A stretch of DNA of 64,000 nucleotides from Berkelbacteria bacterium GW2011_GWE1_39_12 (lineage in GTDB: Bacteria > Patescibacteriota > UBA1384 > UBA12157). The notes below the pieces were generated by a model. It did no database searches. It was not told the DNA's origin and worked only from the letters and a program-made list of their open reading frames with translations. Within the stretch, counting starts at the first letter, position 1; the number at the start of each line of letters is the position of its first letter. This document shows, piece after piece, positions 2,292 through 59,170 of this stretch. The position numbers and the translations under genes were made by a program. Location: assembly GCA_001029735.1 (NCBI GenBank), contig CP011213.1:204087-268086 (forward strand), written 5' to 3'.

Positions 2292-2846
2292 CTAAAACTT
2301 CACTTGAGGCAATTCTTTCTCTTCAGCTTTAGCTTCAAAAAGTTCGAAATCTTTAGATCCGGTCATACCAGCCACTAAGCTACTTGGGAATACTTGAATT
2401 TTTGTATTAAAGTCACGAACTTGACCATTGTAAAATCGACGAGCTGCTTCAATTTTGTTTTCTGTATCCGTTAACTCGTCCTGTAACTTTTGGAAATTTT
2501 CCGAAGATCGTAAGGTCGGATAACTTTCCGCCACGGCAAAAACAGATTTTAAAGCGCCTGATAAGACGTTTTCTTTTTCAGATGCATCTACCGGTCCTTT
2601 TGCATTGATCGCATTGGCGCGTGCTTCAGTTACTTTTTCAAAAACACCTGATTCCTGTTTGGCATAACCTTTTACAGTCTCCACCAAATTTGGAATCAAA
2701 TCATGACGTCTTTTCAATTGAACGTCTATATCTGACCAAGCCTCTTTGGTGCGATTTTTAGCGGTGATTATACTATTGTATACACCGATAAACCAAATCG
2801 CTGAAATTGCGATGACCGCCAAGATAATCCATAACCATATAGCCAT
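2292..2846 (-). CDS. lemA: LemA family protein
   Basis: N-terminal TM helix plus the ...SYPTLRSSENFQKLQDEL... motif characteristic of LemA. Confidence 0.75.
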   Translation of the reverse strand: MAIWLWIILAVIAISAIWFIGVYNSIITAKNRTKEAWSDIDVQLKRRHDLIPNLVETVKGYAKQESGVFEKVTEARANAINAKGPVDASEKENVLSGALKSVFAVAESYPTLRSSENFQKLQDELTDTENKIEAARRFYNGQVRDFNTKIQVFPSSLVAGMTGSKDFELFEAKAEEKELPQVKF

Positions 2847-3715: not shown

Positions 3716-3832
3716 CCCTCCAATTAATAACTTATCTGAACAAAGTCCAGATTCTCCTTCTAAACTAATATAATAATATTATGGCTTTACTCGCAAATCG
3801 CGGAAATTAAATTCTATGATTTAATTATACTA

Positions 3833-6623: not shown

Positions 6624-7446
6624 CCACCAAATTTTTGAATAATTCTGCCACAGTTACCGGTCCGACTCCTCCTGGATTTGGCGTGAAACTTGCAACCTTT
6701 TCATAGACCTCGGGCGAAATATCGCCTACCATTTTTCCGCCAACTTCTGCGGTACCAGCATCGATTACGATAGCGTCTGGTTTCACCATATCTGGTTGGA
6801 TTAATCCCGGCACCCCTGTGGCTGAAATTAAAATATCCGCTAATAATGTTTTTTCTTTCAAGTTAGTAGTTTTAGAGTCGCAAATACTGGCGGTAATATG
6901 TCGCTTCAGAAGTAATCTTTCTAAAGGCTGGCCGACCAAACGGCCATGTCCAATAATTACAAATTTTTTACCTTCGAGATCAATTTTATAAAAATTTAAA
7001 ATATCCAAAATAGCTTGCGCTGTCGGAGCCGGAAATTCACCTATCCCTTGATAAGCGAAACCATCTGTGTCTTTCTTGGGATTGATCAAACCAATTATTT
7101 TTTCAGTCTCCATCCCCTCTGGGAGCGGTAATTGCACAACAATACCGTTTACGTATTTATTTTCATTTAATTCGGAAATAATTTTTTCAACACTTTCCTG
7201 GGAAGAAAATTCAGGCAAGTGATATAACTTAAAACCAATGTTTAATTTTTCTGCGATTTTTTCCTTCAGCTTGACATACGCCAAACTAGCCGGGTTTTCT
7301 CCGACTAAAACGATTGCCAAAAAGGGCCTATCCTTTAAGCCCTCCATTTCCTTTTGCATAGTTTCATAAATTTTTTCTGCTACCGGTTTGCCATATAAAA
7401 TCATTTTTATATTTTCCTCTAGAAAATTCCGCGGCATGCACAGCAT
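6604..7446 (-). CDS. folD: bifunctional methylene-THF dehydrogenase/cyclohydrolase FolD (true start probably about 7404 at MILYGKP)
   Basis: ILYGKPVAEKIYETMQKEMEGL...AIVLVGENPASLAYVKLK. The annotated 5' extension overlaps the upstream gene and covers a CGCGGAATTTTC motif. Confidence 0.85.
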   Translation of the reverse strand: MLCMPRNFLEENIKMILYGKPVAEKIYETMQKEMEGLKDRPFLAIVLVGENPASLAYVKLKEKIAEKLNIGFKLYHLPEFSSQESVEKIISELNENKYVNGIVVQLPLPEGMETEKIIGLINPKKDTDGFAYQGIGEFPAPTAQAILDILNFYKIDLEGKKFVIIGHGRLVGQPLERLLLKRHITASICDSKTTNLKEKTLLADILISATGVPGLIQPDMVKPDAIVIDAGTAEVGGKMVGDISPEVYEKVASFTPNPGGVGPVTVAELFKNLVDASNEK

Positions 7447-7448
7447 GA

Positions 7449-8402
7449 CTACCTCGCAAAAATCTGTGTCACCATTATACCATGATCTTTTGTTTCTATC
7501 ACCCCCACTCCCATTTTAGTGAAGCTAGGGTCTAAAATATTGGCTTTATGCTTTGGACTATTCATTAAGCCAATTTGTGCCAAATCGATCGTCGGTGCCA
7601 AAGCGATGTTTTCAGCAGCTGCGATATATTCTACATGTGCGTTATTTAGTCGATCTAAAAGAACTTCACCAGTCGGGGATTCGTGGGCAAAATAGCCTCT
7701 GATTAACATGTCACGACTTTTAACTCTTGCCACATTTCGAATTAAGATATCTTCCGCTAAAGGCACTAGACCTTCTTTGGCCCTTTCCAAATTCACCATT
7801 GCAAACATTTGCTTTTCAGAGTCACCATCGATAGCTGTATCTGTTGTCGTAAAATCCAATTTAGATGTTTGATCCAAAACAGGATTGGAGGTTAAGTATC
7901 CAACCGTTCCATTTACACCGGCGAAAACCGTTTCTACCTGCGCTTCAATTCTTGCCGTCTGATGGATTAAATATCCGCCGATTAACGATTTTGAAATAGT
8001 TGATTTTAATCCACCCCAGATCGGCATAATCATAAAAAGAATTAGCAAAACGGCGATAAAAACTATTCCCTTTAACGCCGCTGGAAACAAACCGAAATAA
8101 TGGTTTGGCGCCGACTCTTTCAATTTGGACGGAGTGTAGTAAGAAAGATATTTGCCGATAATGTAGAAAAACATTTGAGATAAAAACCAGATGGTCAAGA
8201 AGCTAACTGGCCTGGTATATGAATCTGAAAAATGAATATCTTTTAACAATTGTTCTAAATTCGGATAAAATTTTAAAGCAAAAGCAAATGCAAACAGCAG
8301 GCCGGCAAATTCCCAAGCCAACCTTAAAAAACCCCGTCTGTAACCATCCCAGACGTATATAACAAAAACCGTGATGATAATAAAATCAATCCAATTAGGC
8401 AT
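7449..8402 (-). CDS. polytopic membrane protein with C-terminal CAP/SCP (YkwD-like) domain
   Basis: Multiple N-terminal TM helices. C-terminal GYFAHESPTGEVLLDRLNNAHVEYIAAAENIA resembles the CAP domain. Confidence 0.5.
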   Translation of the reverse strand: MPNWIDFIIITVFVIYVWDGYRRGFLRLAWEFAGLLFAFAFALKFYPNLEQLLKDIHFSDSYTRPVSFLTIWFLSQMFFYIIGKYLSYYTPSKLKESAPNHYFGLFPAALKGIVFIAVLLILFMIMPIWGGLKSTISKSLIGGYLIHQTARIEAQVETVFAGVNGTVGYLTSNPVLDQTSKLDFTTTDTAIDGDSEKQMFAMVNLERAKEGLVPLAEDILIRNVARVKSRDMLIRGYFAHESPTGEVLLDRLNNAHVEYIAAAENIALAPTIDLAQIGLMNSPKHKANILDPSFTKMGVGVIETKDHGIMVTQIFAR

Positions 8403-8469
8403 TCTACCTACATTTTATAATTTTTAAAAATTTTTGTCTTTAATTTTTAAAAATTTCCGCGAATTAAGA

Positions 8470-8898
8470 TTATATCTTAATTCTACCTTTTTTTTTAACT
8501 TCTAAATAGTCGTTAATAGCTTTTTCCAGTGCTTCTTCAGCTAAAACAGAACAATGACGTTTAACTGGCGGCAATCCTCCCAGCGCCTCAATAATCGCTT
8601 GGTTAGAAACTTTCTTTGCTTCCTCGATTGTTTTGCCTATTATGAGATCGGTTAACATTGAAGAAGTAGCGATGGCAGCGCCACAACCGAAAGTTTGAAA
8701 TTTGGCATCGGTAATTATTTCCTTGCCTCCATCAGCTGACGGACTTTTTTCCACTTTTATTTGCAGTTCCATCAAGTCACCACAAACTGGGTTTCCCACT
8801 CTCCCTTTACCGGAGCAGTCTTCAACTTTTCCCATATTGTGCGGATGCTGAAAATGATCCATCACTTTTTCTGAATATAATTTAGAAATATCTGACAT
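8470..8898 (-). CDS. iscU: Fe-S cluster assembly scaffold IscU/NifU
   Basis: Conserved cysteines: GNPVCGDLMEL, FQTFGCGAAIA and the C-terminal HCS. Confidence 0.8.
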   Translation of the reverse strand: MSDISKLYSEKVMDHFQHPHNMGKVEDCSGKGRVGNPVCGDLMELQIKVEKSPSADGGKEIITDAKFQTFGCGAAIATSSMLTDLIIGKTIEEAKKVSNQAIIEALGGLPPVKRHCSVLAEEALEKAINDYLEVKKKGRIKI

Positions 8899-13403: not shown

Positions 13404-13441
13404 AATTTTTTCTGCAAATTTCCGCGATTAAAGTACTCTTT
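13401..13441 (-). promoter_or_regulatory. AAAGAGTACTTTAATCGCGGAAATTTG-N5-AAAATTATGG element abutting the start codon of 12924-13403
   Basis: Shares the AAAGAGTACTTT plus CGCGGAAATTTG extension with the metG copy. Confidence 0.45.
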
Positions 13442-24858: not shown

Positions 24859-25824
24859 TTATAGATCGAGCCCGACCTGTTGGGCTCTGAATATCTGGCC
24901 TCTTAGACTTGCGAGTTCCTCATTGAGTCCAATGCTTGCTTCCTCAAGTTCGGTCCTAGCCGTCTTGATTCTTACCGGGATCGTGACGTACTCGTCCCCA
25001 CCAGCTGAGCTTATGAACGCGAGCTCAATGGCTTCAATTTGTTGTCTTCTCTCTTCGGCCCGTCGTCGATATCCTTCCACACCCTGCCTAGCCCAACCGC
25101 GTTCGCTCTCAAGTTGCTCGTTAACCGCTGGCCACTCACTCGTATCTATCCCTAACATCTTTCCAAGATGATAAAGGTTTAGAATGTTGGCAGTGCCATC
25201 ACGCTCTAGCAATCTTCGAACTACGGCAGAATTGCCGATAAAAATCGCGCATTCATTACCATCGGGTCGTCGATTATCCGTCTCGGTTCGCATCCGCTCC
25301 AGCCACGTCAGGTAATTGAATAGGTCAGTATGCGTCAGTCTGATATGTGAGTATTTCTCGACACCGTTCATCTTGACGGCAGGTCCTACCAAATTCATCA
25401 AACCGTCTGAATTGTAGAGAACCGGCTTTTCCGAAGTGATCACCGAGAGGATTGAAGGCAATGTACTTGATGCCGGATGCTCGATAAAGAGAAACTGTCC
25501 GATATGTCGGCGGATTCTCCGCAGTAAGCGCGGAATCTTGGCCATTGCCTCTTCACGTTTACCAATGAAAGTTGCAACGCAAAAGTCGATGATTGGTCCG
25601 CCCAAAGTGGCTCGGCCTTCTTTGATTTCCCGTGATAGCGTCTGCATCCGGCTGCGTATTTCAGCAAGCTCTCTCACAAGTTGCTTGCTTTCGGTCTCAG
25701 CCCCACTTAGACAATCTTCCAAAACCATAAGATCTTTACGTCTGTTTATACGCATCTTCCAACCCCCAGATTTTTCACGTTCGACAATCAATATATTATT
25801 AACATATTCTAATCTGACCGTCAA
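24859..25824 (-). CDS. hypothetical R/E-rich protein in GC-richer island
   Basis: 321 aa with no recognisable motif. Codon and GC composition is distinct from the neighbouring genes. Flanked by rho-independent terminators on both sides. Confidence 0.3.
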   Translation of the reverse strand: MTVRLEYVNNILIVEREKSGGWKMRINRRKDLMVLEDCLSGAETESKQLVRELAEIRSRMQTLSREIKEGRATLGGPIIDFCVATFIGKREEAMAKIPRLLRRIRRHIGQFLFIEHPASSTLPSILSVITSEKPVLYNSDGLMNLVGPAVKMNGVEKYSHIRLTHTDLFNYLTWLERMRTETDNRRPDGNECAIFIGNSAVVRRLLERDGTANILNLYHLGKMLGIDTSEWPAVNEQLESERGWARQGVEGYRRRAEERRQQIEAIELAFISSAGGDEYVTIPVRIKTARTELEEASIGLNEELASLRGQIFRAQQVGLDL

Positions 25825-25844: not shown

Positions 25845-25871
25845 ACAAAAAAGGCGCGCAACTGCGCGCCG
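25845..25871 (-). terminator. rho-independent terminator ending a non-coding minus-strand transcript
   Basis: Minus strand GGCGCGCAGTTGCGCGCC followed by TTTTTTG. It lies upstream of the start of 24859-25824. Confidence 0.75.
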
Positions 25872-26211
25872 CTACAACAAGAATATTATAGTAAATTAAA
25901 AGGCGCGATCGAGATGCGGTCCATTAATTTTAATTATAAACCGATCGTCGCGCCCCTATGATGTGGGCAAAGTATTTGGCTTTGTCCCTATCACAGATTT
26001 TCATCTTCAATAAGGACCACCTAACTAAACCCGTTCTCCTACTATATATAAATACGGTAAGAGGAAAAGCTCGAGGTCCCTCCTTGAACTTTTCTCCTCA
26101 CCGTCTATTCCCTTCCTTTTTTAAAGATCTATCAATTCATCAATTCCATGATTATAATTTGTGAAGCAAATTTCCGCATTGATACTTAATTTATTAAGTA
26201 TCAATTATACT
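25872..26211 (-). ncRNA. candidate approximately 340-nt non-coding transcript (or micro-ORF RNA) between the sigma-factor gene and ORF 24859-25824
   Basis: Bounded by a promoter and a strong terminator. No ORF over 25 codons on the minus strand. Internal stems such as GGCGCGA...TCGCGCC. Family not identified. Confidence 0.35.
26179..26204. promoter_or_regulatory. perfect 12-bp inverted repeat TTGATACTTAAT-tt-ATTAAGTATCAA (operator-like)
   Basis: Read directly from the sequence. Sits between the promoter and the motif element. Confidence 0.6.
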
Positions 26212-26240
26212 ATTGTACAGCATTTTGACGAGCTTGTCAA
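26212..26240 (-). promoter_or_regulatory. sigma-70-like promoter TTGACA-17 nt-TACAAT for the non-coding transcript
   Basis: Minus strand TTGACAagctcgtcaaaatgctgTACAAT. Downstream are the IR operator 26179-26204 and a CGCGGAAATTTG-type element. Confidence 0.55.
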
Positions 26241-27058: not shown

Positions 27059-27220
27059 TTTATTCGCTGGACTGCAGCTTTTTGTCCAGCGTCATAAAAT
27101 TAAAAATACAATTTATGACCTTACTCCGAAGACTGAAGTTTCTTGTCCAGCGTCATAAAATAATCACTAATTCATGACCTATTCAGATGATTGAAGTTTT
27201 TTATCTAAGGTCATGAATTT
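27059..27220 (-). repeat. three tandem copies of the dnaB terminal segment FMTLDKKLQSSE-stop with only synonymous differences
   Basis: Minus-strand copies: ATGACCTTAGATAAAAAACTTCAATCATCTGAATAG (in dnaB), ATGACGCTGGACAAGAAACTTCAGTCTTCGGAGTAA, ATGACGCTGGACAAAAAGCTGCAGTCCAGCGAATAA. Period is about 58-61 nt. Confidence 0.85.
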
Positions 27221-28525: not shown

Positions 28526-28638
28526 AATTTGAGATCCTTAACTTAATCTGTGCATTACTATCATTATGCTTTTGTTCTAGTAGCGTCAAGGCTGTGGAAA
28601 GTGTGGATAGTGGGGATAAACTACGTTACAATTAAAAC

Positions 28639-59087: not shown

Positions 59088-59170
59088 TTGTCGCGGAATT
59101 TTCCTGGAAAGGAAAATATGGACAAAAATGATTGTCGCGGAATTTTCCTTGAAAGGAAAATATGGACAAA
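59088..59170 (+). repeat. 44-bp tandem duplication of the motif, RBS and start-codon region of the PaaX-like gene
   Basis: TTGTCGCGGAATTTTCCTgGAAAGGAAAATATGGACAAA (59088-59126) and TTGTCGCGGAATTTTCCTtGAAAGGAAAATATGGACAAA (59132-59170). The first ATG opens a 25-codon out-of-frame uORF. Confidence 0.85.

Follow-up and report, generated by a model that had tools for sequence, protein, structure and literature searches.

The 64-kb stretch of DNA analysed here, called the window below and providing all coordinates unless another locus is named, comes from a groundwater genome of Candidatus Berkelbacteria (Candidate Phyla Radiation, CPR, or Patescibacteria), and on its minus strand, at 26240-25847, it contains what is very probably a gene for a structured non-coding RNA (ncRNA) from a real, conserved and uncatalogued CPR family, with a perfect palindrome close to the promoter representing an insertion. 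CPR bacteria account for a large share of bacterial diversity and have tiny genomes, and their RNA biology is, to our knowledge, almost entirely unexplored. The initial annotation of the window had described the region as a structured non-coding unit with a promoter and a terminator of its own, and this view is supported both by the folding of the region and by its homologues. The first reading is also corrected: its most striking feature, the palindrome, proved to be the least conserved part.

Homologues were sought by blastn in loci fetched through their DnaB proteins, then by scanning metagenomes for an exact pattern derived from the shared 3′ hairpin, and then by dnaB-anchored look-ups, which together yielded ~19 homologues from other Berkelbacteria, Nealsonbacteria and unnamed Patescibacteria (loci are designated by L numbers). 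The first blastn matches, to positions 26007-25894 of the window, came from L051 (Patescibacteria; 82% over 103 nt) and L014 (Berkelbacteria), and the same segment was matched on the opposite strand in L006 (Nealsonbacteria). The pattern scan returned 32 stretches, 14 of them true relatives that represent 8 further distinct sequences and the rest GC-rich chance matches, and look-ups of DnaB relatives added L095-L100. Scans of viral contigs revealed no members, one giving 10 chance matches without a covariance-model hit and the other none. With a covariance model built on the 3′ domain (R1), 18 loci reach 51-126 bits; in the window the model finds a single copy at 25897-25997 (95.3 bits, E = 5e-18), and in L102 and L101 its scores are weak, at the expected place.

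The predicted fold of positions 25845-26205 (361 nt) has a free energy of -122.8 kcal/mol (z = -7.6 against dinucleotide shuffles). In an alignment of the two 3′-terminal hairpins, H3 and T, from 18 sequences (A4), 95% of cells are in standard pairs and 17 of the 31 pairs exhibit double changes, pairing counts that are inflated by the fitting of A4 to the model; these measures are not attained in any of 500 shuffles, and slid partners pair in 40-55%. H3, the first helix of A4, comprises 13 pairs (7 with double changes, 94.9% of cells paired), and the helices 2-4, which make up T, comprise 18 pairs (10 with double changes). The middle tier of T alternates between CGA/UCG, CGC/GCG and CGU/ACG, and L102, a divergent member, has exchanged the entire outer stem of T (ACCCAAG/CUUGGGU) but retained the loop sequence. 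Comparison with homologous regions, proposed in the initial annotation as a check, has revealed covarying helices that show this to be a real RNA gene.

The RNA also proved to be outside the catalogues, in keeping with the initial remark that signatures of tmRNA, RNase P and signal recognition particle (SRP) RNA are missing. The 4227 models of Rfam 15, run at gathering thresholds and additionally at E-value limits set between 0.1 and 10 in the individual scans, gave no match at the gathering thresholds in the whole window and 11 homologous loci, and ARAGORN detected no tRNA or tmRNA in the window or six member loci. The RNA does not qualify as a member of any named family that could be tested. 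Neither did we find a description of it in the literature, although this search was shallow and a description outside Rfam is possible. As a new entry in RNA catalogues, the family would improve the annotation of thousands of metagenome-assembled genomes, and, as a candidate for a new function in regulation or in a ribonucleoprotein (RNP), it is tractable to study.

The predicted RNA is ~310 nt long, or ~360 nt if the first of its two terminators is read through, and in the family its parts follow one another in the order promoter with a double -10 element, leader, hairpin H1, linker, segment A2, central block, free hairpin, H3 and T. The window has all of these parts except an A/C-rich linker and belongs to the family by its R1 match, its H1 with the apical AAGGAGGG, its A2 repeat, its double -10 and its position in the dnaB-pcrA interval; in L014 the central block is missing. 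The near-consensus promoter of the sigma-70 type (26240-26204, minus strand) consists of TTGACA (26240-26235), a 17-nt spacer and TACAAT (26217-26212); with 11 of 12 positions in agreement with the consensus, it surpasses every other promoter-like site within 24.5-27.5 kb. As the initial annotation had it, and as the terminator and promoter scans bear out, it comes directly after the intrinsic terminator of the upstream sigma gene (26277-26255, minus strand). A second -10-like hexamer, TATAAT (26209-26204), follows after AG and overlaps the start of the palindrome; such a double -10 (TAnAnT-A-n-T-nTAAT) is kept in all family members. Promoter columns 6-42 of a second alignment (A5) are conserved in 7/7 sequences, and scans of the window, L100 and L070 found the promoters to match the consensus at 11-12 of 12 positions. 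The double -10 string TACAATAGTATAAT recurs 5′ of another gene of the window (2767-2780, minus strand).

All further parts are likewise on the minus strand. The family leader (26150-26105), which aligns with the 5′ ends of L098, L074, L097, L096 and L062, starts with CAUGGAAUUG, continues with the boxA-like GAUCUUUAAAAAA (26129-26117) and reaches the purine block AAGGAAGGGAAUAG, which in the family reads GGAGGGAA; a boxA-like CUUU(A/G)A-type motif is found in ~10 of 19 members, the window included. H1 (ACGGUGAGGAGAAAAG…CUUUUCCUCUUACCGU; 26104-26054) is predicted by folding and is present in all members, with arm sequences varying by lineage, and bears at its tip the conserved AAGGAGGG (26085-26078), where GAG pairs with CUC. 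Most members have an (AAAAAC)n linker and then GUACCUUA between H1 and A2. A2 itself (AGUAGGAGA; 26043-26035) repeats the 5′ arm of H1 downstream and is complementary to the 3′ arm, which makes it a candidate for an alternative pairing. In the family A2 is followed by GGGUGGAGUUACGCUGUCCUUACU and a small hairpin of free sequence; the corresponding central region of the window (26033-25992), delimited by alignment and minimum-free-energy folds, comprises GGGUUUAGUUAGG (the GGGUGGAGUUACGC of the family), the segment C′1 (GGUCCUUAU; 26018-26010) and a variable hairpin (26009-25992). For C′1, the 5′ arm of H3 is a possible pairing partner, with U-A in the window where others have C-G.

H3 (GUGAUAGGGACAAAG-CCAAAUA-CUUUGCCCACAUCAU; 25994-25958), the block with the highest sequence conservation in the family, has the general form AUGGUAGGGACAAAG-loop-CUUUGCCCUUACCAC and also contains …UAGGGACAAAG…CUUUGCCC…; in some members a hairpin is inserted between H3 and T. 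The ornate terminator hairpin T (25956-25893) is built of GGGGCGCGACGAUCGG, a loop UAUAAUUAAAA, CCGCAUCUCGAUCGCGCC and the U-tract UUUUAAUUU, and across the family it is a ~60-nt three-tier hairpin with the loop CAAUAAUUUAAAG and a U-tract behind it. T is the likely main 3′ end and the conserved end of the family, and the initial annotation overlooked it, naming instead a "textbook" terminator further downstream (GGCGCGC-AGUU-GCGCGCC plus U6; 25870-25847). The terminator scan confirms the latter, with its GC-only 7-bp stem (25870-25853) followed by T6, though it is specific to the window, absent at the same position elsewhere and additional to T; it resembles a shortened copy of the arms of T and probably catches read-through. 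On the 3′ side of the RNA, three Berkelbacteria lineages repeat parts of the 3′ arm of T (…GCCGCAGU.UUGCGCCUUCUUU…), namely L097 (6440-6530), L014 (8520-8565) and the window (25847-25872), where the repeat takes the form of the compact second terminator.

Several segments of the RNA appear to have a choice of partners. The 3′ arm of H1 (A′) is complementary both to the 5′ arm (A) and to A2, and all three change together between lineages, the sets A/A′/A2 being ACGGCAG/CUGCCGU/ACGGCAGG, GGUAAGAGG/CCUCUUGCC/GGUAAGAG and GGUAAGAAG/CUUCUUACC/GUAAGAAG, with GGUGAGGAG/CUCUUACC/GUAGGAG as the set of the window; in other words, A2 and A′ track each other as CGGCAG with CUGCCG, GGUAAG with CUUACC and GGCAAG with CUUGCC. 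The best downstream partner of A′ falls within the A2-containing stretch in 19/19 members, at -9 to -21 kcal/mol, a strength similar to that of H1 itself, and pairings of A′ with A2 reach -14 to -20 kcal/mol within lineages as against averages of -10 to -12 in cross-lineage controls. In a gapless count, at least 9 of 11 A′:A2 pairs form in 84% of members compared with 30% of shuffled arms, and two columns display the exchanges U-A/C-G and A-U/G-C. Similarly, GUAGGGAC in the 5′ arm of H3 (segment C) can pair either with the upstream GUCCUUAC (C′1) or with the downstream CCCUUACC (C′2), and a G-to-A change in this arm of the window is matched by C-to-U in both partners. The concerted changes in A/A′/A2 and in C′1/C/C′2 provide a moderate indication, resting on few events in related sequences, of selection for two competing folds, in which case the family would be a natural example of RNA evolution preserving both. 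A further contact is suggested between the loop of H1 and the CCUU of the linker, which in most members may form a pseudoknot: the base before AAGG in the loop covaries with the base after CCUU (UAAGG/CCUUA, CAAGG/CCUUG, GAAGG/CCUUC, AUAAGG/CCUUAU, UAAGA/UCUUA), as read by eye from 10-12 sequences without a shuffle test. Three other contacts were considered and rejected. Variation yields mismatches without compensation both in a pairing of GGGUGGAG with CUUUGCCC and in a kissing contact between the loops of H3 and T, and for an antiterminator made of the variable hairpin and T, complementarity was confined to L072.

The RNA lies between dnaB and pcrA in 17 of 20 loci, with 0-3 unrelated genes intervening, and its 3′ domain exceeds 90% sequence identity across lineages whose DnaB proteins are only ~66-75% identical to that of the window; this conservation, together with the fixed place between two replicative helicase genes, indicates that the RNA probably does something central. 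The RNA of L006 and L073 is inverted, convergent with dnaB, and yet fully conserved, which argues for a function independent of the downstream gene. It stands directly 5′ of pcrA in 4-5 loci and 5′ of unrelated genes in ~7, and its 3′ end forms a variable gene hotspot that can be likened to that beside other stable RNA genes. Perfect DnaA boxes (TTATCCACA) occur 11-101 nt 5′ of the -35 element of the RNA in six loci from as many lineages (L054:4295; L072:743; L099:5411; L101:5371; L102:5379, 5393; L006:9023, 9035) and also just 5′ of dnaB in many loci, the window having two one-mismatch boxes there (28602-28619). In all, 244 kb contain 16 perfect DnaA 9-mers compared with ~2 expected, and the placement of the boxes hints that DnaA may control this gene cluster.

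How the RNA might act is a matter of tentative proposals. A strongly expressed stable RNA acting in trans is favoured on account of the consensus promoter and the rRNA-like sequence conservation, as well as the retention of the gene when inverted and the gene hotspot at its 3′ end, but the specific mechanism that we put forward, sequestration in trans by means of two folds, is one possibility that we would not rate as probable. The RNA would be made constitutively at a high level, terminated at T, and would act as a stable structured molecule, either an RNP scaffold or a sequestering RNA; its two folds would toggle and so hide from a partner, or expose to it, purine-rich segments that are Shine-Dalgarno (SD)-like or contain GGA. 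The partner could be the anti-SD of the 30S subunit or an RNA-binding protein, and in some genomes read-through at T may also feed pcrA. In its widest form, the proposal of an undescribed ~300-nt structured RNA, near-universal in a large part of the CPR and serving as a two-state SD-hiding and SD-exposing device within a dnaX-dnaB-RNA-pcrA replication cluster, is similarly speculative; if true, it would mean a new housekeeping riboregulator or RNP component in minimal-genome symbionts, perhaps one that couples replication or helicase expression, or ribosome availability, to the state of the cell.

Several points weigh against this picture. The start site, 3′ end and abundance of the RNA are inferred from sequence, and the choice of partner is a guess from the SD-like and GGA motifs. 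The alternative-pairing signal is moderate, since 2-3 columns covary, the gapless score is noisy and the lineages do not count as independent samples, and the putative loop-linker pseudoknot, read by eye only, is absent from the window, L014 and L098. In L094, the closest relative examined (DnaB 88% identical), dnaB abuts pcrA and no copy of the RNA lies within 4 kb on either side, the gene being either dispensable there or moved. Finally, pcrA begins 29-82 nt past T in L100, L070, L072 and L102, and in the two of these four that were scanned, L100 and L070, no consensus-like promoter besides that of the RNA was found, an arrangement that fits a cis-acting leader.

Such a leader or attenuator of pcrA or whichever gene comes next, in which the mutually exclusive pairings (A:A′ against A′:A2, and C′1:C against C:C′2) signal to T and set the level of read-through, is the strongest competitor of the trans-acting RNA, though we regard it as rather unlikely. 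Besides the proximity of pcrA, it can draw on the ~12 of 20 loci with a co-oriented gene no more than ~160 nt after T and on the resemblance of the RNA to attenuators and riboswitches (T-box, trp-type), which likewise place chains of mutually exclusive helices 5′ of a strong intrinsic terminator; the GGGUGGAG block even faintly recalls the GGGUGGNACC of T-boxes. A further point in its favour is a boxA-like motif, (G)UACUUUAA(U/C)AA or GAUCUUUGAAAAA (CUUUAACAA in L097), which about half of the members have close to their 5′ ends and which recalls the boxA/nut elements of rRNA operons and lambdoid phages (boxA consensus UGCUCUUUAACAA); the motif is missing in the other half. The order of boxA followed by boxB in nut sites also has a parallel in the leader module of the window, where a motif similar to boxA is followed by a small hairpin. 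Points against the attenuator model are the conservation of the RNA in its inverted position in L006 and L073, a next gene on the other strand in L014, L095 and L098, and the lack of relationship among the genes that follow. No conserved segment complementary to either arm of T was found, with sporadic complementarity to the variable hairpin in 1-2 members, so that no antiterminator was identified; no riboswitch or T-box model matches, and the RNA is kept where nothing follows it. In the window, moreover, the second terminator and a separate promoter-like site (TTGACG-18-AATAAT; 25824-25795, minus strand) stand before the next gene, and a promoter of consensus strength would be odd for a low-abundance helicase.

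The initial annotation envisaged tight repression of a small RNA promoter by a dimeric protein bound to the palindrome as its operator, a model that now appears improbable. The perfect 12+12 inverted repeat is indeed located where it was reported (26204-26179, minus strand; repeat scan), with the correction that its central dinucleotide is AA on the minus strand and tt on the plus strand. It begins within the second -10 hexamer and extends over the probable start site, no such repeat is expected by chance (none in shuffles), and its A/T-rich half-sites with a 2-bp centre would suit a dimer of helix-turn-helix proteins. Comparative support for an operator is, however, lacking. All of the palindrome but its first base falls within a 53-nt block specific to the window (26203-26151), bordered by TATAAT at both ends and inserted exactly after the double -10; in A5 a single gap block lies opposite it in L098, L014, L097, L096, L074 and L062, homology picks up again 3′ of it (CAUGGAAUUG … GAUCUUUAAAAAAGGAAGGG), and no other homologous promoter, including those of the nearest Berkelbacteria, has the palindrome. 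The search for further copies, recommended initially for defining a regulon, found none in the 64-kb window even with 3 mismatches allowed, and no half-site pair either. No repressor gene adjoins the RNA, the neighbours encoding a sigma factor and a 298-aa protein without a family match. Situated at or after the likely start site, the palindrome would equally fold, as RNA, into a 12-bp 5′ hairpin.

The remainder of the insertion points to where it came from. It consists of a GCGGAA element (26177-26172), a small hairpin ATTTG/CTTCA/CAAAT (26171-26157) and the closing TATAAT (26156-26151), which together read GCGGAAATTTG-cttca-CAAATTATAAT (26177-26151, minus strand). Units composed of GCGGAA, a hairpin and UAU(A/G)(A/G) are present in ~14 copies in intergenic leaders of the window, after a -10 box and 0-60 nt before the start codons of many unrelated genes (first G at 7432, 8460, 10360, 13425, 16866, 18348, 26177 and 58220 on the minus strand, and at 3800, 30936, 35021, 37739, 59093 and 59137 on the plus strand), and their stem covaries (AUUUG/CAAAU against UUUUC/GAAAA). 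What had been called a conserved upstream element is, then, a repeated one that is neither specific to the RNA family nor found in its other members. Outside the window, the 9-kb locus of the closest relative has one copy of the module (L094:9131), and other CPR loci are essentially devoid of it. Judging from these sequences, a lineage-specific leader module has been copied into the RNA gene here. At 13436 and 18359 such modules are preceded by AGAGUACUUUAAU, which the 5′ half of the palindrome resembles, and the palindrome accordingly looks like a local duplication-inversion within the module. If transcribed, the palindrome and the GCGGAA hairpin would add a 5′ stem-loop that lies outside the mechanism of the family. 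The module, possibly a lineage-specific signal in transcription or translation (nut-like, or masking the SD), constitutes a separate lead. Two tandem modules, 44 nt apart (GCGGAATTTTCC-tggaa-AGGAAAATATGGACAAA…; 59093-59170, plus strand), directly precede an open reading frame (ORF) at 59162; in the one at 59137, the SD is inside the 3′ arm of the hairpin and UAUG provides the start codon.

We consider it still less probable that the family is a very divergent version of a known RNA, such as 6S, SRP (4.5S/6S) RNA, RNase P RNA, tmRNA, a CsrB/Rsm sponge or the raiA motif, that Rfam failed to see. The strong promoter, the high sequence conservation and the neighbourhood of housekeeping genes are compatible with this interpretation, and in Bacillus the SRP RNA gene adjoins dnaX; an intrinsic terminator and several conserved GGA purine blocks are also characteristic of Rsm/Csr sponges. 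Four conserved GGA-containing blocks are visible in the RNA, but most of them are within predicted helices and not in loops. None of the 4227 models matched four members at the E-value limits given above, beyond chance-level alignments: the best score in the region was 23 bits against a gathering score of 90, the homologues gave 12.8 bits for CrcZ against a gathering score of 95, and L072 and L056 had no match at E<0.1. No conserved pairing of the 5′ and 3′ ends, as in the closing helix of 6S, SRP, RNase P or tmRNA, emerged from the folds, the 3′ ~60 nt being the self-contained, covarying T, and H1 lacks the GNRA and AGCA motifs of the SRP type. Identities as a T-box, riboswitch, SRP RNA, 6S RNA, RNase P RNA or tmRNA were rejected on the basis of the model searches combined with the architecture.

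As a class, the RNA would seem to work most like the orphan structured ncRNAs (raiA motif, OLE, HEARO, ROOL, GOLLD), with an internal logic akin to that of attenuators. Shared with these RNAs are a free-standing gene of ~250-390 nt with several conserved helices and a probable pseudoknot, strong conservation, restriction to particular lineages and the absence of an ORF. In contrast to them, it gives no match to the Rfam models of these classes, falls short of OLE, ROOL and GOLLD in size, is confined to Patescibacteria as sampled, and has a fixed dnaB-pcrA synteny and unusual segments with dual partners. CsrB/RsmZ, 6S RNA and CrcZ resemble it as independent RNAs ended by a terminator and carrying several conserved purine blocks of the (A)GGA or SD-like kind, and the (AAAAAC)n linker of most members is similar to the A-rich Hfq/Crc sites of CrcZ; it was through this linker that CrcZ gave the only weak Rfam alignment (E = 0.56). 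Sponge RNAs, however, evolve fast and have repeated simple hairpins, unlike the long conserved helices and fixed architecture seen here, and the rod with a central bubble typical of 6S is missing.

That the region instead encodes one or more small proteins is scarcely credible. Three frames could be invoked: a 24-26-codon micro-ORF, a frame starting NUG-GUA-GGG-ACA-AAG, and a 68-codon ORF on the plus strand (25958-26164) without a Pfam match. The existence of the last qualifies the initial statement that no ORF exceeds 25 codons, which held approximately for the minus strand only, where the longest ORF has 26-27 codons. In favour of the NUG frame, AUG, GUG or UUG always stands just before UAGGGAC, every member keeps this frame open over 11-102 codons, and L054 and L056 have open frames of 102-105 codons. 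Yet the open lengths and stops are inconsistent, indels of 2, 34 and 35 nt in loops and inserts shift the frame, no SD precedes the NUG, which is buried in H3, and its first base covaries with its pairing partner (A-U, G-C, G.U), an explanation at the RNA level. The micro-ORF pointed out initially, (TTG AAG) ATG … TAA (MKICDRDKAKYFAHIIGARRSVYN; 26010-25930, minus strand), is judged not to be a gene, as its frame is without a start codon in 15 of 18 members, and no ORF conserved in frame, length and start was found across the homologues.

On the minus strand of the window, the RNA region is preceded by dnaX, dnaB and the sigma gene and followed by a 298-aa ORF and pcrA/uvrD (Pfam assignments). 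The sigma-70-family ORF (26960-26280, minus strand; 226 codons, TTG start after AGGAGGTG; Pfam Sigma70_r2 and r4) encodes a protein found only in contigs of one groundwater organism, 4 of which are identical to the window across the region, and a search of 5.8 billion proteins returned no relative of this 226-aa factor except itself. As a route to relatives of the RNA, the sigma protein led back to the same strain only, dnaB being the route that succeeded. Its best family match is the phage sigma PHROG 351; despite this resemblance, a phage origin of the locus was rejected, since no blastn match to 50,697 phage records was obtained and the locus is chromosomal. Downstream, the 298-aa ORF (ATG at 25755, to 24859, minus strand) has no family match and no PHROG match, and is followed by the pcrA/uvrD-like helicase gene (24588-22729, minus strand). 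Given that dnaB and pcrA abut in L094 (4001-7226), the sigma gene, the RNA and the 298-aa gene appear to form a variable segment.

A few observations concern the surroundings of the RNA gene in the window and elsewhere. Between dnaB and the sigma gene of the window (27060-27180, minus strand), a ~20-nt direct repeat, TTTTATGACGCTGGACAA[G/A]AA, occurs twice, ~60 nt apart, 5′ of the promoter-like site of the sigma gene. In L051, a second non-coding stretch of ~430 nt (8170-8612, plus strand) with its own TTGACA-…-TATAAT and terminator comes directly after the RNA and precedes pcrA; RNase P RNA was considered for it (8195-8612) and dismissed, with no Rfam match at E<1 and a fold z of only -2.4. 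The dnaB genes of L005 (6001-8607) and L006 (5980-8619) have ~870-880 codons, which suggests the insertion of an intein, and the pcrA gene of L095 (6519-9344) carries an Intein_splicing domain.

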